64,000 nt of DNA from Escherichia phage TH09. The notes beneath the pieces were generated by a model, which saw only the letters and a program-made list of their open reading frames with translations, was not told the DNA's origin and searched no databases. The position numbers were made by a program, and so were the translations under genes. Shown in pieces: positions 30,935 to 39,494 of the stretch; position 1 is the first letter of the stretch, and the number at the start of each line of letters is the position of its first letter. The stretch is taken from sequence record MT446387.1. One strand, given 5' to 3'.

Positions 30935-31203
30935 TGTTTGTTGTTCATACTATTTATGAAAATGAAGGTAATACTACACGTGATTACGGTCACGTAAATC
31001 AATTTTTTAGATGCAATCCAGAATTCCGAGCTCAAAAAGACGAACGAATTTTTAAAAAATGTGTAGAGCAAGGTTTCATTTACGTCAAGCACTGGATGCA
31101 AGGAAATAAAGTTAGAACCACGTACCACAGGTCTTTGACTGAGCTTAATGATGAATTGATTTATAATAGAGCTGTAAACCAAACTCTAAAGGATGAACAA
31201 TGA
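30934..31203 (+). CDS. Hypothetical protein (89 aa)
   Basis: ORF track; ATGA overlaps. Confidence 0.5.
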   Translation: MFVVHTIYENEGNTTRDYGHVNQFFRCNPEFRAQKDERIFKKCVEQGFIYVKHWMQGNKVRTTYHRSLTELNDELIYNRAVNQTLKDEQ

Positions 31204-32663
31204 TTCTTAAAATTCTGAACGAAATAGCATCTATTGGTTCAACTAAGCAGAAGCAAGCAATTCTTGAAAAGAACAAAGATAATGAATTGCTTAAACGAGT
31301 ATATCGTCTGACTTATTCTCGTGGGTTACAGTATTATATCAAGAAATGGCCTAAACCGGGTATTGCTACCCAGAGTTTTGGAATGTTGACTCTTACCGAT
31401 ATGCTTGACTTCATTGAATTCACGTTAGCTACTCGGAAATTGACTGGAAATGCGGCAATTGAGGAATTAATTGGATATATCACCGATGGTAAAAAAGATG
31501 ATGTTGAAGTTTTGCGTCGAGTGATGATGCGAGACCTTGAATGCGGTGCTTCAGTATCTATTGCAAACAAAGTTTGGCCAGGTTTAATTCCTGAACAACC
31601 TCAAATGCTTGCAAGTTCTTATGATGAAAAAGGCATTAATAAGAATATCAAATTTCCAGCTTTTGCCCAGTTAAAAGCTGATGGAGCTCGGTGCTTTGCT
31701 GAAGTCAGAGGTGATGAATTAGATGATGTTCGTCTTTTATCACGAGCTGGTAATGAATATCTAGGATTAGATCTTCTTAAGGAAGAGTTAATTAAAATGA
31801 CCGCTGAAGCCCGCCAGATTCATCCAGAAGGTGTGTTAATTGATGGCGAATTGGTATACCATGAGCAAGTTAAAAAGGAGCCAGAAGGCCTAGATTTTCT
31901 TTTTAATGCTTATCCTGAAATTAGTAAAGCTAAAGAATTCGCCGAAGTAGCTGAATCACGTACTGCTTCTAATGGAATCGCTAATAAATCTTTAAAGGGA
32001 ACCATTTCCGAAAAAGAAGCACAATGCATGAAGTTTCAGGTCTGGGATTATGTTCCATTAGTAGAAATATATGGTCTTCCTGCATTTCGTTTAAAGTATG
32101 ATGTACGTTTTTCTAAACTAGAACAAATGACATCAGGCTATGATAAAGTAATTTTAATTGAAAACCAGGTAGTAAATAACCTAGATGAAGCTAAGGTAAT
32201 TTACAAAAAGTATATTGATCAAGGTCTTGAAGGTATTATTCTCAAAAACGTTGATGGGTTATGGGAAAATGCCCGTTCAAAAAATCTCTATAAATTTAAA
32301 GAAGTAATTGATGTTGATTTAAAAATTGTAGGAATTTATCCTCACCGTAAAGACCCTACTAAAGCAGGTGGATTTATTCTTGAGTCAGAGTGTGGAAAAA
32401 TTAAAGTAAATGCTGGTTCAGGCTTAAAAGATAAAGCCGGCGTAAAATCACATGAGCTTGACCGTACTCGCATTATGGAAAACCAAAATTATTATATTGG
32501 AAAAATTCTAGAGTGCGAATGCAACGGTTGGTTAAAATCTGATGGCCGCACTGATTACGTTAAATTATTTCTTCCGATTGCGATTCGTTTACGTGAAGAT
32601 AAAACTAAAGCTAATACATTCGAGGATGTATTTGGTGATTTTCATGAGGTAACTGGTCTATGA
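31200..32663 (+). CDS. 30: ATP-dependent DNA ligase (487 aa)
   Basis: Matches T4 DNA ligase from MILKILNEIASIGSTKQKQAILEKNKDNELLKRVYRL onward; adenylation lysine context QLKADGARC. Confidence 0.97.
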   Translation: MILKILNEIASIGSTKQKQAILEKNKDNELLKRVYRLTYSRGLQYYIKKWPKPGIATQSFGMLTLTDMLDFIEFTLATRKLTGNAAIEELIGYITDGKKDDVEVLRRVMMRDLECGASVSIANKVWPGLIPEQPQMLASSYDEKGINKNIKFPAFAQLKADGARCFAEVRGDELDDVRLLSRAGNEYLGLDLLKEELIKMTAEARQIHPEGVLIDGELVYHEQVKKEPEGLDFLFNAYPEISKAKEFAEVAESRTASNGIANKSLKGTISEKEAQCMKFQVWDYVPLVEIYGLPAFRLKYDVRFSKLEQMTSGYDKVILIENQVVNNLDEAKVIYKKYIDQGLEGIILKNVDGLWENARSKNLYKFKEVIDVDLKIVGIYPHRKDPTKAGGFILESECGKIKVNAGSGLKDKAGVKSHELDRTRIMENQNYYIGKILECECNGWLKSDGRTDYVKLFLPIAIRLREDKTKANTFEDVFGDFHEVTGL

Positions 32664-32848
32664 AAGCTTACTTAGAAACAATTGTCATTGCTCAAAAAGA
32701 AGGTGGAGATGTTTCTACTTCTGTATCACAAGTCATTCTCGAATTTGTAGATGCATACGCTTATAATAAATTTACAGAAACATTTGATGCCTATGAAAAA
32801 GGACCAAAGTTTGAAATATATCGTACTCTCTTACCACTAGATTACTAA
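32660..32848 (+). CDS. Hypothetical protein (62 aa)
   Basis: ORF track; ATGA overlap with the ligase stop. Confidence 0.5.
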   Translation: MKAYLETIVIAQKEGGDVSTSVSQVILEFVDAYAYNKFTETFDAYEKGPKFEIYRTLLPLDY

Positions 32849-32864
32849 AGGCCTTCGGGCCTTT
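32847..32864 (+). terminator. Terminator-like hairpin
   Basis: AAAGGCC-uucg-GGCCUUU followed by AAUUUU. Confidence 0.55.
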
Positions 32865-32869
32865 AATTT

Positions 32870-32877
32870 TATAAATA
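32870..32877 (+). promoter_or_regulatory. Late promoter TATAAATA upstream of the first Alt-like gene
   Basis: Exact TATAAATA about 23 nt upstream of ATG 32901; consistent with late expression of a packaged protein. Confidence 0.6.
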
Positions 32878-32900
32878 GAATAAACACTAGAGAGGCTATG

Positions 32901-34994
32901 ATGGAACTTATTACAGAATTATTTGACGAAGATACTACTCTTCCGATTACAAACTTAAATCCAAAGAAGAAAATACCGCAAATTTTTTCAGTTCACGTTG
33001 ATGATGCAATTGAACAGCCAGGCTTTCGTTTATGCACCTATACATCTGGAGGTGATACTAATCGCGATTTAAAGATGGGCGATAAAATGATGCATATTGT
33101 TCCTTTTACATTAACTGCTAAAGGTTCAATTGCTAAATTAAAAGGTCTTGGTCCAAGCCCAATTAATTATATCAATTCAGTTTTTACTGTTGCAATGCAA
33201 ACTATGCGTCAGTATAAAATTGATGCCTGTATGCTCCGTATTCTTAAGTCTAAAACCGCTGGTCAAGCTCGACAAATTCAAGTTATTGCTGATAGACTTA
33301 TCCGTAGTCGTTCAGGTGGTAGATACGTCCTTCTTAAGGAACTCTGGGATTACGATAAAAAGTATGCATATATTCTTATACATCGCAAAAATGTATCACT
33401 AGAAGACATTCCAGGAGTTCCGGAAATTAGTACCGAGCTCTTTACTAAAGTTGAATCAAAGGTCGGTGATGTTTATATCAATAAAGATACTGGAGCTCAA
33501 GTAACTAAAAATGAGGCAATTGCTGCATCTATTGCGCAAGAAAACGATAAACGTTCTGACCAAGCTGTAATCGTTAAAGTTAAAATTTCCCGTAGAGCAA
33601 TTGCACAAAGTCAATCATTAGAATCTTCTAGATTTGAAAGTGAATTATTCCAAAAGTATGAATCTACCGCAGCTAATTTCAATAAACCTGCTACGGCTCC
33701 TTTAATTCCCGAAGCAGAAGAAATGAAGCTTGGAATTAATTCATTAGCTTCTAAAACTAAAGCAGCAAAAATCATTGCCGAAGGAACTGCAGATGAACTT
33801 CATTATGACTATAAATTCTTTTCAAAAAGTGAGGTTAATGAAGTTTCTGAAAAAATTAAAGATGTAATTCTTAATGCGATTAAAAATGAACCAACTACTT
33901 CAATAAAATGTTTAGAGAAATACGCAGCAGCTGTAAATCAATTCTTTGAAGATTATAAAGATAAATGGCTTGCTAATCATAATAAAAATCGTAAAGGACA
34001 ACCAGATGAAGTCTGGGAAGAAATAACTAAAAATTCCTGGAACGCAGCAAAAACTAAATTCCTCAAACGAATGATTTACAGTTTTTCTGGAATTGGTGCT
34101 GGTCCAATGATTGATATTACTATTGCCCGCGATGGTTCTAAATATACTCCATCACAAAAGCGTGGCATTAGAGAATATTGCGGTTCAGGATATACTGACA
34201 TCAATAATCTTCTTTTAGGTCGTTACAATCCAGAACGATATGATGTAATGAGTGAAAAAGAAATTGAATCTGCTATAAATAACTTAGATTCAGCTTTTGA
34301 AAATGGTGACCGCATACCGGAAGGCATCACAGTTTATCGTGCTCAAAGTATGACTGCTCCTATATACGAAGCACTAGTTAAAAATAAAGTGTTCTATTTC
34401 AGAAATTTTGTATCTACTTCTTTAACTCCTATCATTTTTGGACGTTTTGGAATTACACATGCTGGTATTGGTCTTTTAGAACCAGAAGCTCGTAATGAAT
34501 TGACAGTTGATAAAAATGAAGAAGGAATAACTATTAATCCAAACGAAATAAGAGCGTATAAAGAAAATCCTGAATACGTTAAAGTTCAAATAGGATGGGC
34601 AATTGATGGAGCTCATAAAGTTAATGTTGTATATCCAGGAAGTCTCGGAATAGCAACAGAAGCTGAAGTTATTCTACCGCGCGGATTGATGGTCAAAGTT
34701 AATAAAATAACTGATGCTTCTAATAATGACGGAACCACGTCTAATAATACAAAACTCATTCAAGCTGAAGTTATGACCACGGAAGAGCTCACCGAATCGG
34801 TAATCTATGATGGAGACCATTTAATGGAAACCGGCGAAGTAGTTGCAATGACAGGTGATATTGAAATAGAAGACAGAGTTGACTTTGCATCATTTGTTTC
34901 ATCAAATGTTAAACAAAAAGTAGAATCATCTCTTGGAATTATTGCGTCTTGCATAGATATTACAAACATGCCTTACAAGTTCGTTCAAGGATAA
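32901..34994 (+). CDS. alt: Alt-like mono-ADP-ribosyltransferase, copy 1 (697 aa)
   Basis: N-terminus MELITELFDEDTTLPITNLNPKKKIPQIF; R-S-E type ART motifs VYRAQ, FVSTSL, EAEVIL; conserved C-terminal DGDHLMETGEV; I recognise the family but not which copy is T4 alt. Confidence 0.8.
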   Translation: MELITELFDEDTTLPITNLNPKKKIPQIFSVHVDDAIEQPGFRLCTYTSGGDTNRDLKMGDKMMHIVPFTLTAKGSIAKLKGLGPSPINYINSVFTVAMQTMRQYKIDACMLRILKSKTAGQARQIQVIADRLIRSRSGGRYVLLKELWDYDKKYAYILIHRKNVSLEDIPGVPEISTELFTKVESKVGDVYINKDTGAQVTKNEAIAASIAQENDKRSDQAVIVKVKISRRAIAQSQSLESSRFESELFQKYESTAANFNKPATAPLIPEAEEMKLGINSLASKTKAAKIIAEGTADELHYDYKFFSKSEVNEVSEKIKDVILNAIKNEPTTSIKCLEKYAAAVNQFFEDYKDKWLANHNKNRKGQPDEVWEEITKNSWNAAKTKFLKRMIYSFSGIGAGPMIDITIARDGSKYTPSQKRGIREYCGSGYTDINNLLLGRYNPERYDVMSEKEIESAINNLDSAFENGDRIPEGITVYRAQSMTAPIYEALVKNKVFYFRNFVSTSLTPIIFGRFGITHAGIGLLEPEARNELTVDKNEEGITINPNEIRAYKENPEYVKVQIGWAIDGAHKVNVVYPGSLGIATEAEVILPRGLMVKVNKITDASNNDGTTSNNTKLIQAEVMTTEELTESVIYDGDHLMETGEVVAMTGDIEIEDRVDFASFVSSNVKQKVESSLGIIASCIDITNMPYKFVQG

Positions 34995-34997
34995 ATC

Positions 34998-37055
34998 ATG
35001 GAACTTATTACAGAATTATTTGACGGCGCTTCGGCGCCGGTTGTTAACTTAAATCCTAAGCATAAAATACCGCAAATTTTTGCTATTCAAGCCGGCGAAG
35101 AAAGTGTGCTTCCTGGATTTAGATTTTGTACATACACCTCTGGCGGTGATACAAATAAAAACGTTAAGCCAGGCGATAAAATGATGCATATCGTAATGAT
35201 AGGTGTCAATGAGAAACTATCGCTCGTTAAACTTAAAAACTTGGGTGGAAATCCAATTGGTGTCATTAATGCGGTTTTTGATACTGCTCTTCAAACAATG
35301 AAACAGTATAAAATTGATGCATGCTTATTCCGCGTACTAAAGAGTAAAACAAATGGCGCAGCTCGTCAAATGCAAGTTATTGCTGACCGTTTAGTACGTA
35401 CTAAAGGAGCAGGTCGATATGCTCTTTTAAAGGAAATCTGGGATTACGATAAAAAGTATGCATATATTATGGTTTACCGTAAAAATGCCAATTTAGAAGA
35501 CATTCCAGGTGTACCTCCTATTTCAACTGAGTTATTCACAAAAGTTGAATCAAAGGTTGGTGATGTTTATGTAGACGTTAAAACAGGTAATGCTGTTCCT
35601 AAAGCTGTTGCTGTTGCTGCTTCTATTGCCTTAGAAAATGATAAGCGCACGGATCAAGCTGTTATTCAGAAAACTAAAATTAGTCGTCGATTAGCAGCAC
35701 AAGCTCAATATTCTACTGTTGATGCTTCACTTCAGGGTGATAGCTTCGCTGCTAAGAAATATCAAGAGTTTGAATCTAAAGTTCCGGTATATAAAGCAGA
35801 AGGACCAATGAACTCCGGGGTTATCCAGATTGGTTCAAACTTTAACAAAGGAGCTATCGGTGGTATGAGAAGTGCTTCTCGTTTTAAATCTAATGATTAT
35901 GAACTAGAAAGTTTCCGAAATCATATTGCATTAGCCCATGCGCGTTTACGTGATCCATCTATCAAGTTGCAGAGCGATATAACATATCAAGGTTCTCAAG
36001 AATATTTAAAGAATAAAGAATTCTTTGATTATAAAACTGATAAAATTTTAAGCGATCTTGCTGACATTAATATTTCTAATAGCTTTGATGTTATTAAGAA
36101 AATTATCAATGATTTAGTTAAAGGTTCTAAAGCTACACCAGATGAAAAGACAGCTATTATTCAATTTGTCATGAATGGCATTTATAAATTGATTAATGAA
36201 TCTGCCGCTCAGGCATATGAATACGCGAGCACCGAAGTAACTCCAAAAGGATTAACTCAAGCTGAATCTGATGTAATTGAAGATTATTGTGCAGATTCAT
36301 ATGTTGAAATGAACTCGTTCCTTTTGGGTAAACCAGATTCTACCCGCGAAGAATATATGGAACGAGCTATTAAACATATTGAGACGCTTGATTCTGCATT
36401 CGCTAAAGGTTCAGTTCTTCCTCCAGGAACTACACTTTACCGTGGACAAGAAGTTACATTTAAAACTTTGCGTCATAACATTGAAAACAAAATGTTCTAT
36501 TTCAAGAACTTCGTATCCACATCGCTTAAACCAAATATCTTCGGTGAGCATGGTAAAAACTATATGGCCTTAGATGATTCCGGCGCAGTATTTTCTGGTG
36601 AAGGAGAAGGTTCCGTTGATGCAGAAGATTTGATGCATATGGGTAGTCATTCTACATATGCTAGTGAAGATGCCGAAACTAGCGTGGGTATGGTAATTAA
36701 AGGAGCTGAGCGAATCAAAGTTATCGTTCCAGGTCATTTATCAGGATTTCCATCAGAAGCTGAAGTTATTCTACCACGTGGAATTTTACTGAAGATTAAT
36801 AAAGTAAGTACGTACTTTATGAAAGAAACTGCTTATAACAAGTATCTAATCGAAGGTACAATCGTTCCTCCTTCTGAACAATTAGAGGAATCAGTATATG
36901 ATGGCGACCATTTGATGGAAACTGGTGAAGTTCGTCCAATGACTGGATTTAATCAATTCCTTGTCGAAGAATCAAAAGAAGAGGAAAACGAAGTTTCTCA
37001 AATCTTAGCTTCTTTGGTTAACATTAACGGAATGTCTAAAAAGTTCAAAATGTAG
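34998..37055 (+). CDS. Alt-like mono-ADP-ribosyltransferase, copy 2 (685 aa), tandem paralog
   Basis: Same N-terminal 200 aa architecture as copy 1 (MELITELFDG...), diverged middle, same ART motifs LYRGQ, FVSTSL, EAEVIL and DGDHLMETGEV. Confidence 0.8.
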   Translation: MELITELFDGASAPVVNLNPKHKIPQIFAIQAGEESVLPGFRFCTYTSGGDTNKNVKPGDKMMHIVMIGVNEKLSLVKLKNLGGNPIGVINAVFDTALQTMKQYKIDACLFRVLKSKTNGAARQMQVIADRLVRTKGAGRYALLKEIWDYDKKYAYIMVYRKNANLEDIPGVPPISTELFTKVESKVGDVYVDVKTGNAVPKAVAVAASIALENDKRTDQAVIQKTKISRRLAAQAQYSTVDASLQGDSFAAKKYQEFESKVPVYKAEGPMNSGVIQIGSNFNKGAIGGMRSASRFKSNDYELESFRNHIALAHARLRDPSIKLQSDITYQGSQEYLKNKEFFDYKTDKILSDLADINISNSFDVIKKIINDLVKGSKATPDEKTAIIQFVMNGIYKLINESAAQAYEYASTEVTPKGLTQAESDVIEDYCADSYVEMNSFLLGKPDSTREEYMERAIKHIETLDSAFAKGSVLPPGTTLYRGQEVTFKTLRHNIENKMFYFKNFVSTSLKPNIFGEHGKNYMALDDSGAVFSGEGEGSVDAEDLMHMGSHSTYASEDAETSVGMVIKGAERIKVIVPGHLSGFPSEAEVILPRGILLKINKVSTYFMKETAYNKYLIEGTIVPPSEQLEESVYDGDHLMETGEVRPMTGFNQFLVEESKEEENEVSQILASLVNINGMSKKFKM

Positions 37056-37108
37056 TTTACAAGTCCCTCGTGTTGTGTTATAGTAATCTTACTGACATAA
37101 CATGAGGA
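37055..37108 (+). repeat. 54-bp early promoter/leader cassette, copy B (identical to 21308-21361)
   Basis: Perfect 54/54 identity with copy A; begins at the stop codon of Alt-like copy 2. Confidence 0.9.
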
Positions 37109-37115
37109 ACACAAA

Positions 37116-37406
37116 ATGAAATCTTCTTTGCGCTTTTTAGGTCAAGAACTTGTAGTTGAAGGCGTTATTCCTGCTGATAATGCTTTTAATGAAGCAGTTT
37201 ACGATGAATTTATCAAAATTTTTGGAACAGATAAAAAGTTCGGAATTTTTCCTTCTGAAAATTTTTCAAAGCCAGAACAGACTGAAAGCATTTTCCAAGG
37301 TGTAGTAACAGGTAAATTTGAGTCAGAAGCTCCGGTAAAAATTGAAGTTTATATTGAAGACAGTTTAGTTGCTTCAGTTGCTGCTTTTATTTCATTCCGT
37401 AAATAA
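37116..37406 (+). CDS. Hypothetical protein (96 aa)
   Basis: ORF track; driven by repeat copy B; ends at a bidirectional terminator. Confidence 0.55.
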   Translation: MKSSLRFLGQELVVEGVIPADNAFNEAVYDEFIKIFGTDKKFGIFPSENFSKPEQTESIFQGVVTGKFESEAPVKIEVYIEDSLVASVAAFISFRK

Positions 37407-37412
37407 AAATAT

Positions 37413-37430
37413 GGGGACCTTTCGGTCCCC
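37413..37430. terminator. Bidirectional terminator between convergent genes
   Basis: GGGGACC-uuuc-GGUCCCC flanked by A/T-rich runs on both sides. Confidence 0.75.
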
Positions 37431-37434
37431 ATTG

Positions 37435-38400
37435 TTATATTGCTCCTAATATTTTACTTTGCGAGTTGACAATTCCCGTCATAGTATTAATGTTTGAAAT
37501 GCTTCCAGCAGTTCCTCCTAATCTACTAAGTCGTGAAAGCGAATTAGATAATCCAGTAACACCTCCACTATTTCCGAGAACACTTTGAATGCCATTTATA
37601 GCAGCAGATTCAAGCCACTCAAGCGCAGCTTGTCTATCAACCGACCCAGCCTGCATGACTCTATACGCAAAAGTAACATCAAATGTAGTTATTTGGTTAT
37701 CTCCATCATATGATAACTCAGGAGCGCTCACTGACACTGGAATGCATCCGGTGAACATCACCGCAGTATGAGGTAATCCATTACGAGCATGAAGATTAAC
37801 CTGAATATCTGCCTCGACATCCTGTGGCAAAGCACGCAATCCAGTTACTGGGTCTTGAACAGAGTTAACCCAGTCTTGCATTGCACGATAGTTACAAGCT
37901 TCTGAATCCATTCTAAATGAAATAACCAAAGGGTCTAATTCTCTTCCGGTTATACGAATATTAGGAGAATTATAGTTCCAGTCAGTTTCATAAGATAATC
38001 TATTCTCTGGCATTTTTACAGAGTATATCATCAATCCAGATGAGTTATATGCCATGTTAAAGAAGTCAATTAAATATGTACCAACTGTAAATGAGCCCAA
38101 TAAACTTTGAACTGTACGTTGACTCATGGCACCAATAAGATATTTACTAACCCCTGATTTTCTTATCAGTTTTTGTGTGCCAGCAGTAATTAGCGTGGTA
38201 ATTCCCTGATTAATATCGCCTTGAGACAATCCTAACCAGTCTGAATTTAGACCCAAGTTATTATAAGAAAAGTTGCTAATTGAACTTATCAACGAAGAGC
38301 TTTTAGTTGATGGAGTTGTCGCAAAAACGCAGCTAAACATATTATTACGTTGGAAATCTGCGTTTATTGCTTGATTATTAAATTCCTCTAAAGAATACAT
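37435..38400 (-). CDS. 54: Baseplate tail-tube initiator gp54 (321 aa)
   Basis: Size and synteny as T4 gp54. Confidence 0.85.
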   Translation of the reverse strand: MYSLEEFNNQAINADFQRNNMFSCVFATTPSTKSSSLISSISNFSYNNLGLNSDWLGLSQGDINQGITTLITAGTQKLIRKSGVSKYLIGAMSQRTVQSLLGSFTVGTYLIDFFNMAYNSSGLMIYSVKMPENRLSYETDWNYNSPNIRITGRELDPLVISFRMDSEACNYRAMQDWVNSVQDPVTGLRALPQDVEADIQVNLHARNGLPHTAVMFTGCIPVSVSAPELSYDGDNQITTFDVTFAYRVMQAGSVDRQAALEWLESAAINGIQSVLGNSGGVTGLSNSLSRLSRLGGTAGSISNINTMTGIVNSQSKILGAI

Positions 38401-39494
38401 TAAAAAGTCCCCGCATATAAAGAAGCACGGTTTAACGTGATAATTTCTCTCATAGTAATCTCGAGAGTAAATGTACTAGGGAGGTTTGGAGCAATAGCTA
38501 ATCCGTTAAAGTTACCATTAGGCGTTTTATCAAATCTAATGCTTTGTATTTGGCATGGACCAAATATTTCCGTTTTTCCATCAAACTTAGATGTTGCACC
38601 AAAGTTTTTCACCATCCAAATTGTCGGGTTTGAAACTACTAGAACGTTAGTTAAACTCGATGTCATTTTCTCAAATAGTGTTTTATTTTTAGCTGCGTCT
38701 TCCGGAGATAAAGGTTCAATTAACGTAGAACGATACCAATCATCTAAATACCCCTTTATTTCAGCAGCATATTGAGATTTACCAGTTTCACCATAAGAAA
38801 AATAGTTAAAATATTGATAGATATTAATAATAGCCATTAAATCTTCTGTTGAACGTGGAGTCAAATCCCAAGTAAACACTTTAGTTCTATTTTCAGCACC
38901 ACCATACATACTTCGAGCCGTAGTGTATATTTGTTCATTATTATCAGCCATTATACCTTGTGTTATACTTTCCAGTGCTCCAAATACTGCAGTTGAAGCA
39001 ATATTACTTAGCACACCAGTAGCAGTACCTCCGCCTCTGCTGATAAGACTTTCTTGAACATCATTAAATCTATGTGATGATGTATCAACATCGGATTTAG
39101 ATCTTGGTAAAAGAATATTTGCAACAGGGGCTTTACTTATTGTTCCTGAATTATTATCTGATATTAATCCATTTGACAGTTTTGATACTGTATTACTGAT
39201 AGTGTTTCTGGCTGTACGTAAAATACTCGAAGATGAAGAAGAGTAGTTAGATCTCATCGATCTAAGACTTCCAGAATCCCTAGATGACATATTGTATGCA
39301 GTAAATAATAATCCATTCTTATATAGATCTGTTACCTGGAAGTCCCCTGTAGTGTCATTACCACTAGCACGCCCAGTTGGAAACTGGGCTGTGTATGTTT
39401 TAGTTCCTACTTCTGATTTAGTACTCTGTCCGGCTGAAATTTTCTCACCGGACTTTTTAATTAAATCAGCAGTTATTTCTTTAACAATTGCCAT
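38400..39494 (-). CDS. 48: Baseplate tail-tube cap gp48 (364 aa)
   Basis: Size and synteny as T4 gp48. Confidence 0.85.
   Translation of the reverse strand: MAIVKEITADLIKKSGEKISAGQSTKSEVGTKTYTAQFPTGRASGNDTTGDFQVTDLYKNGLLFTAYNMSSRDSGSLRSMRSNYSSSSSSILRTARNTISNTVSKLSNGLISDNNSGTISKAPVANILLPRSKSDVDTSSHRFNDVQESLISRGGGTATGVLSNIASTAVFGALESITQGIMADNNEQIYTTARSMYGGAENRTKVFTWDLTPRSTEDLMAIINIYQYFNYFSYGETGKSQYAAEIKGYLDDWYRSTLIEPLSPEDAAKNKTLFEKMTSSLTNVLVVSNPTIWMVKNFGATSKFDGKTEIFGPCQIQSIRFDKTPNGNFNGLAIAPNLPSTFTLEITMREIITLNRASLYAGTF

Follow-up and report, generated by a model that had tools for sequence, protein, structure and literature searches.

Two tandem genes for Alt-family ADP-ribosyltransferases (ARTs) lie in a 64,000-nucleotide stretch of Escherichia phage TH09 (sequence record MT446387.1; hereafter the window), and the second of them, intact here, is the gene of which the short T4 genes alt.-1 and alt.-2 are a deletion remnant. 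Copy 1 (32901-34994; 697 amino acids, aa) was identified from its open reading frame (ORF) and its homology to T4 Alt as the alt orthologue, in a T2/T6-type allele; an in-frame ATG just upstream, at 32898, would give it one extra Met. Copy 2 (34998-37055; 685 aa) is the full-length form of T4 alt.-1/alt.-2. All coordinates are window positions, and features are on the plus strand unless stated otherwise. We consider it likely that both genes encode mono-ADP-ribosyltransferases that are made late, packaged and injected, and that act on different host substrates.

Two adjacent Alt-like ORFs of exactly these lengths and positions had been picked out in an earlier reading of the sequence alone, which also described a common N-terminal third and ART domain with a divergent middle. 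Both descriptions hold. Full-length alignment of the two proteins gives 42% identity (E = 5e-161). Residues 1-238, the N-terminal part, are 68% identical; the middle (239-410) reaches 14%, the ART region (411-625) 36% and the C-terminal tail 45%. The locus region of the window is 100% identical to that of Escherichia phage JLBYU22 (OK272484, Tequatrovirus sf22), in which copy 1 is labelled 'putative ADP-ribosyltransferase' and copy 2 'putative RNA polymerase-ADP-ribosyltransferase Alt'. The gene pair is already known, being annotated in JLBYU22, T2, T6 and hundreds of other Tequatrovirus records, and both the T4 RefSeq annotation and Nolan et al. 2006 had recorded the alt duplication, the latter describing alt.-1/alt.-2 as paralogous to alt and a full-length alt duplicate in phage 44RR (PMC1524935). 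To this the present analysis adds that alt.-1/alt.-2 are a remnant of copy 2; that copy 2 is ancestral, widespread and under purifying selection; that it retains packaging and processing motifs; and that the Alt locus appears to combine an N-terminal domain (N-domain) with an exchangeable effector.

Origin and retention of the second gene

Phage T4 (NC_000866) has one intact alt gene (682 aa), followed by alt.-1 (61 aa), alt.-2 (67 aa) and alt.-3. The products of alt.-1 and alt.-2 (NP_049810 and NP_049809, both annotated as 'hypothetical proteins') correspond to copy 2 residues 1-56 (95% identity) and 62-116 (98%), respectively, whereas their identity to Alt itself is only about 56-62%. They are the same gene as copy 2, broken by two lesions. 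A run of five A in copy 2 (35157-35161) is reduced to four in T4, producing the -1 frameshift that divides alt.-1 from alt.-2. Further downstream, T4 has lost 1,699 bp of copy 2 between 9-bp repeats, the left microhomology arm being CTAAAGAGT (35337-35345) and the right arm CTAAAAAGT (37036-37044). This deletion takes copy 2 residues ~117 to 680, including the whole ART domain. The T4 record describes the remnant as 'an old duplication of the first part of gene alt', and the T6 record, in which the full-length gene is labelled 'alt.-2', refers to an 'apparent insertion in alt.-2'. Because the T4 junction shows microhomology and the gene is conserved across genera, the data indicate that full-length copy 2 is ancestral and the T4 state derived. 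The sequence-only reading had left open whether both copies might be present, and already characterised, in T4; since T4 lacks an intact copy 2 and has only the alt.-1/alt.-2 stump, this is not the case.

Copy 1 occupies the position of T4 alt, between alt.1 and the second copy, and is thus the positional orthologue of T4 Alt (NP_049811), in a different allele (71% identity). Residues 1-245 and the last ~100 are almost identical in the two proteins, and the centre is diverged (32% identity in the middle, 66% in the ART region); the R-S-E triad, late promoter and motifs for the gp21 prohead protease are all the same. T4 Alt shares with copy 2 its architecture, N-domain (67-68% identity), triad and both propeptide motifs, but differs from it far more than from copy 1, with 41% identity overall, 12% in the middle and 39% in the ART region.

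Among records in the GenBank phage collection, 546 have some match to the locus, and 401 phage records contain at least 80% of a 1.6-kb copy-2-specific probe. The exact T4 deletion junction is found in 91 records. The T2/T6-type copy 1 effector region is present in 332 and the T4-type in 175. A pair of the same lengths, 697 + 685 aa, is found in phages T2 (AP018813) and T6 (MH550421), and the cluster of 685-aa copy 2 proteins at 90% identity has 772 members. The allele of copy 1 and the presence of copy 2 assort independently, each allele occurring with and without copy 2: the T2/T6 type accompanies copy 2 in JLBYU22, T2 and T6 and the deletion in Lv5cm and FL44, while the T4 type accompanies copy 2 in vB_EcoM_G29 and the deletion in T4. 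The two-gene state is ancestral and the commonest in Tequatrovirus, and T4 lost copy 2 by frameshift and deletion.

A different outcome is seen in Yersinia phage PST (L005 2796-4856), whose single alt gene is a clean chimera of copy 1 (nucleotides 1-297) and copy 2 (from nucleotide 303), the product of unequal recombination between the tandem paralogues. Such chimeras are rare: the exact junction was seen in PST alone, and a few possible relatives stand at 95-99%. Since this single alt carries the copy 2 effector, that effector can serve as a phage's sole Alt.

Selection on the two genes was estimated as the ratio of non-synonymous to synonymous substitution rates (dN/dS) by the pairwise Nei-Gojobori method in five phages (JLBYU22, T2, T6, HY01 and Sfk20). 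For copy 2, dN/dS is 0.034-0.063 at dS values of 0.10-0.25, with 42-96 synonymous against 8-22 non-synonymous differences per pair. Copy 1 gives 0.032-0.066 within an allele class, indistinguishable from copy 2. The copy 2 ORF is intact in six of the seven genomes sampled. Copy 2 is a maintained gene under strong purifying selection and, with dN/dS of ~0.04, therefore not a decaying duplicate; its candidacy as a pseudogene was rejected on these values.

Catalytic sites and exchangeable effectors

Both proteins match PF03496 (ADPrib_exo_Tox) well above the Pfam cut-off of 23.4 bits, copy 1 with 129 bits and copy 2 with 72 bits. By alignment, the catalytic Arg of copy 1 is Arg480, in Y479-R480 (VYRAQ; Arg codon 34338-34340), followed by S505-T-S507 (34413-34421) and by E587-A-E589 (34659-34667), which holds turn 2 of the ADP-ribosylating turn-turn (ARTT) loop and the catalytic Glu. 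The counterparts in copy 2 are Arg482 in Y481-R482 (LYRGQ; Arg codon 36441-36443), S507-T-S509 (36516-36524) and the ARTT loop G-F-P-S-E587-A-E589 (36744-36764). These R/S/S/E/E residues are invariant in an alignment of 21 diverse homologues, down to 42% identity. The proposal that both copies keep intact R / S-T-S / E-x-E motifs is borne out, and neither copy lacks the catalytic Glu, the alignment showing E587-A-E589 in each. The E-x-E motif predicts arginine specificity for both enzymes.

The two loops differ at the position three residues before the first Glu, which is Phe in copy 2 (F584), Ile in copy 1, and Pro in T4 Alt, where it falls in ARTT turn 1. In toxins of the C3/iota family the ARTT loop has an aromatic residue three positions before [Q/E]-x-E (F209/Q212/E214 in C3bot; Y375/E378/E380 in iota Ia), and this residue takes part in substrate recognition. 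The same C3/VIP2-like arrangement is found in copy 2 and in QL01_c, a homologue from Dhakavirus QL01 with the loop E-Y-A-E-E-A-E and hence Tyr at this position, and not in copy 1 or T4 Alt. As the ARTT loop of copy 2 differs from those of copy 1 and T4 Alt in this way, we take it as a lead toward different targets, not as proof.

An AlphaFold (AF2) model of copy 2, with a mean predicted local distance difference test score (pLDDT) of 76 and a predicted template-modelling score (pTM) of 0.68, shows three parts: an alpha/beta N-domain at residues 12-240, a long stretch of helices at 250-470 and a beta-rich ART core at 480-625. The ends, 1-11 and 629-685, are predicted to be disordered, with pLDDT below 50 for 629-685. 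Foldseek matched the ART core to Vis, CDTa, CPILE-a, C3bot, VIP2 and iota toxin (E values of 4e-9 to 1e-5), and a sequence search of PDB chains at E <= 0.01 returned no solved structure related to copy 2. The resemblance to the C3/VIP2/iota/CDTa/Vis toxins covers the ART fold (Foldseek probability 1.0), the R / S-T-S / [EQ]-x-E site and, for copy 2, the aromatic residue at -3 in the ARTT loop. Sequence identity to these toxins is only 15-20%, however, and they are secreted, whereas Alt is delivered from the phage head; the phage-specific N-domain, the long helical region and the protease-removed propeptides are features of Alt. No NCBIfam family was assigned to either copy. A second Pfam family, PF26846, is precomputed beside PF03496 on almost all Alt homologues (P0001-P0120); it was not reported in the local Pfam scan of the window proteins.

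A comparison with Dhakavirus separates the N-domain from the rest of the protein. At the same locus, phage QL01 has three tandem alt genes (genes 201/200/199; 694, 681 and 707 aa; QL01_a, QL01_b and QL01_c), followed, as in the window, by alt.-3 and gene 54. QL01_a matches copy 1, and QL01_c and the Alt of phage JS10 match copy 2 at 48-58%. The array differs from that in the window in having three copies, of which the middle one, QL01_b, represents a third effector type with no counterpart in the window. In region-by-region identities the N-domain groups by genome: the JLBYU22 copies are 68% identical to each other and the QL01 a/b/c copies 67-89%, against 42-47% across genera. The effector, made up of the helical region and the ART core, groups by type instead. 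Copy 1 and QL01_a are 95% identical in the ART region and 64% in the middle, and copy 2 and QL01_c are 58% and 45% identical in the same regions. At least four effector types were seen, T4 Alt being a further variant beside QL01_b. By this comparison Alt proteins are modular, with an N-domain that follows the genome and an effector that can be swapped.

The two effectors seem to have different histories. Genes 54, 48 and alt.-3 are 59-64% identical between JLBYU22 and QL01, and the similarity of copy 2 to QL01_c fits vertical descent of an old paralogue. As the identity of this pair is close to that of the flanking gp48 and gp54 (60-64%), the duplication predates the split between Tequatrovirus and Dhakavirus. 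For copy 1, the ART core (34100-34830) is 88-92% identical in nucleotides and ~95-96% in amino acids to QL01 (L009 ~1350-2080), inside a gene that is otherwise 43-66% identical to QL01_a (43-62% in the N-terminal half). A core so similar within so diverged a gene points to a fairly recent inter-genus exchange of the catalytic cassette.

In copy 2, as in Alt, a domain of ~240 aa precedes the ART region, and residues 1-238 of copy 2 are 67-68% identical to those of Alt and copy 1. When 1.84 billion proteins were searched with the N-domain, it turned up in 69 clusters, always N-terminal and, at the sequence level, only in Alt-like proteins; eight of the ten clusters that were scanned also carry PF03496. 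Fusion of the N-domain to effectors other than ARTs was considered and found no support at the level of sequence in these clusters. Foldseek comparison of copy 2 residues 1-245 (34998-35732; model mf9130d0b4b1d) with predicted viral structures suggests a similar fold somewhere within large proteins of the unrelated phages phiEa2809, Dickeya RC-2014, Vibrio VP-1 and Agrobacterium Atu_ph07 (E values of 1e-4 to 6e-8, template-modelling scores of ~0.4-0.55), some of the proteins with such a fold being labelled with zeta-toxin, deaminase or ParB domains. The N-domain may be a general head-delivery adaptor.

What the effectors act on is best documented for T4 Alt, which is known to modify R265 in one of the RNA polymerase alpha subunits, MazF and ~27 further proteins (PMC8120803, PMC5512222). 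Since T4 Alt alone, reported to act on both RNA polymerase alpha R265 and MazF, spans 'takeover' and 'anti-defence', the suggestion in the sequence-only reading that one copy serves host takeover and the other anti-defence is speculation. The T4 enzymes ModA and ModB fall within the same R-S-E clade and likewise act on host transcription and translation proteins (PMC5512222, PMC8120803); by description they are set apart as ~200-aa early proteins that have neither N-domain nor propeptides and are not packaged. With an effector and an ARTT loop so different from those of copy 1, copy 2 most likely has different or partly overlapping substrates.

The main rival explanation is that copy 2 is a redundant duplicate, a second dose of Alt activity retained for dosage or robustness. 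T4 Alt is non-essential (PMC9026906), all loss states occur in nature, including the T4-type loss in 91 records and the PST-type loss of the copy 1 effector, and the shared E-x-E motif predicts the same residue specificity for both enzymes. Against this, the effectors are just 14% (middle) and 36% (ART) identical and their ARTT loops differ, the two types are kept distinct across genera (copy 1 with QL01_a, copy 2 with QL01_c), and purifying selection on both copies is equally strong. That two diverged types have been retained over the long term speaks against simple redundancy, which we regard as unlikely.

Predicted signals for late expression and packaging

A T4-type late promoter motif, TATAAATA, lies at 32870-32877, 23 nucleotides 5' of the copy 1 ATG, and is found at the equivalent position in T4, T2, T6, HY01, Sfk20, PST and Elenatom. 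Together with T4/T2/T6 synteny, it suggests that the locus, which lies between gene 30/alt.1 and gene 54, is expressed late, as in the Alt family. Upstream of copy 1, a terminator-like hairpin with an 8-bp stem, four G-C pairs and a T-rich tail follows alt.1 (32846-32865). The sequence-only reading placed a late promoter upstream of copy 1 only. This is correct for the immediate upstream regions of the two genes, but a second TATAAATA is present inside copy 1, in codons A-I-N-N (34274-34281), 724 nucleotides before the copy 2 ATG. The internal motif is common to T2/T6-type alleles and missing in T4-type alleles, and may either serve copy 2 as an internal late promoter or be a coincidence of the coding sequence. 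Over the whole window, TATAAATA occurs 19 times against 9.1 expected, a count reached in none of 100 shuffles, and this excess fits a region rich in T4 late promoters.

The stop codon of copy 1 and the start codon of copy 2 are separated by 3 nucleotides (TAA atc ATG), and the ribosome-binding site of copy 2, AAGGA (34986-34990), lies within the end of copy 1. Analysis of terminator hairpins in the locus found none between the two copies. From this short gap, the AAGGA inside copy 1 and the lack of an intergenic terminator, the simplest reading is that the two genes are probably co-transcribed and translationally coupled, and we infer that they are co-expressed late.

Processing of Alt is known from T4, in which mass spectrometry of heads showed that gp21 removes six N-terminal residues at ITE-6 (PMC5694885); the N-terminal cleavage site is also given in a note to GenBank X15811. 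A further 63 C-terminal residues are lost at LTE-619 through gp21, leaving a mature protein of 68.2 kDa (PMC5694885, PMC9026906), and about 40 copies are present in the mature head and ejected into the host (PMC9026906). The same N-terminal motif, MELITE, begins both copy 1 (32901-32918), where it corresponds to the T4 Alt site ITE-6, and copy 2 (34998-35015), where it is identical. At the other end, each protein has L-x-E directly before S-V-(I)-Y-D-G-D-H-L-M-E-T-G-E. In copy 1 this is LTE-632, homologous to LTE-619 of T4 Alt, and the predicted propeptide beyond it (34797-34991) is acidic and contains YDGDHLMETGEV; in copy 2 it is LEE-631, and the putative propeptide (36891-37052) also contains YDGDHLMETGEV and is predicted to be disordered. 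Both copies thus carry candidate gp21 sites at each end, with L-x-E ~55-65 residues from the C-terminus as expected of the Alt family, and mature copy 2 (residues 7-631) would be about 69 kDa.

These sites change the reading of the DGDHLMETGEV segment, which had been listed with the catalytic motifs. It is indeed present in both copies, but it would not be part of the mature enzyme: it sits past the type of gp21 site mapped at LTE-619 in T4 Alt and is therefore predicted to belong to a removed propeptide, and it is not a catalytic feature. As the segment is conserved between paralogues and genera, it may have a part in targeting, in tethering or in keeping the enzyme quiet before maturation.

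Taken together, the locus would be a late operon of two paralogous Alt-family mono-ADP-ribosyltransferase genes. Each protein would consist of the six-residue propeptide MELITE, an alpha/beta N-domain of ~235 residues, an effector formed by the helical region and an R-S-E (C3/VIP2-like) ART core, and an acidic, disordered C-terminal propeptide with YDGDHLMETGE. Both would be made late from the TATAAATA promoter at 32870, copy 2 by translational coupling to copy 1. Placement in the prohead core is probably the task of the N-domain; both proteins would be built into the prohead, trimmed at both ends by gp21 and ejected alongside the DNA. In the next host cell they would use NAD+ to ADP-ribosylate arginines of host proteins, copy 1 as the counterpart of T4 Alt and copy 2 on substrates that we infer to be different or partly overlapping. 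For copy 2, packaging, gp21 processing and injection are predicted from its retained motifs.

A second alternative is that copy 2 is not a virion protein, and either acts late inside the producing cell or regulates or chaperones copy 1. ModA and ModB provide a precedent, as they act intracellularly and unpackaged (PMC5512222), and we found no proteomic evidence of copy 2 packaging in the searchable literature. Yet copy 2 has retained the Alt N-domain (68% identity), a MELITE identical to that of Alt and the YDGDHLMETGE propeptide motif, it belongs to the same late operon as copy 1, and in the PST chimera, the sole Alt of that phage, the copy 2 effector follows a copy 1 N-terminus. We therefore consider a non-virion role improbable, more so than redundancy. 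Still less credible is that copy 2 is an inactive or decaying paralogue heading to the T4 state: the T4-type deletion in 91 records and the frameshifted copy in Elenatom show such a fate, but dN/dS of 0.03-0.06 contradicts it, and so do the invariant catalytic residues, the ORF intact in 6/7 genomes and the 772-member cluster of 685-aa proteins.

Several observations weigh against two packaged enzymes with different substrates. The assignments of promoters and of cleavage sites are motif matches. In the searchable literature, from which older subscription journals are mostly missing, we found no virion proteomics, activity or mutant study of copy 2. T4 and ~91 other records lack copy 2, and PST lacks the copy 1 effector; as either can be lost in nature, each gene is dispensable in some settings and the two are possibly partly redundant. 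In Elenatom (L008 2799-4842), copy 2 is present as two ORFs (544 + 140 aa), implying a frameshift that is either a real second route to gene loss or a sequencing error.

Flanking genes and significance

Upstream of the pair lie the gene 30 DNA ligase (31200-32663) and alt.1 (32660-32848; 62 aa), which overlaps the ligase stop codon. The alt.1 product, labelled 'putative GnsA/GnsB toxin' in JLBYU22, has 90% identity to T4 Alt.1 and a match to Pfam PF24647 'Phage_blade' (E = 2e-29). Downstream, outside the ART pair, alt.-3 (37116-37406; 96 aa, DUF5498) encodes a protein 100% identical to T4 Alt.-3, C-terminal read-through extensions of which enable T4 to escape the defence system CmdTAC (PMC11618068). 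An early-promoter-like site, (G)TTTACA-17-TATAGT, with 10/12 matches to the consensus and TG before the -10 element, is found at 37056-37084 and, as a consensus match, probably drives alt.-3; it begins right after the copy 2 stop codon and is retained across the T4 deletion junction. A bidirectional terminator hairpin (37411-37432) separates alt.-3 from gene 54, and genes 54, 48 and 29 follow on the minus strand (locus 31200-39494). No tRNA genes and no Rfam families at the gathering threshold were found in the whole window.

A bolder proposal, which we put forward tentatively and hold to be rather less probable than its opposite, is that copy 2 ('Alt2') represents a second effector delivered by the virion, one that has a substrate spectrum of its own and was missed since the laboratory model T4 deleted it, and that the Alt locus is a cassette system. 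The substrate of such an enzyme might be a host protein of defence or stress response, which it would neutralise, or, as with ModB and RNA, something other than a protein. If this is true, the Alt locus of T-even phages would pair a genome-specific head-targeting N-domain with swapped ART effectors. The modularity of N-domain and effector, and the exchange of cassettes, also bear on the engineering of T4 heads for protein delivery.

The finding is of value for the easy experiment to which it points, and not as a new type of system. What is known of injected phage ADP-ribosyltransferases comes nearly all from T4, which is reduced and atypical as a representative; a second conserved Alt-type enzyme is encoded by roughly four in five sequenced Tequatroviruses, T2 and T6 included. 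If the targets of copy 2 differ from those of Alt, it would represent a new immediate-early host-manipulation activity in a classic model system, and could account for some of the differences between T2/T6 and T4 in sensitivity to host defences.

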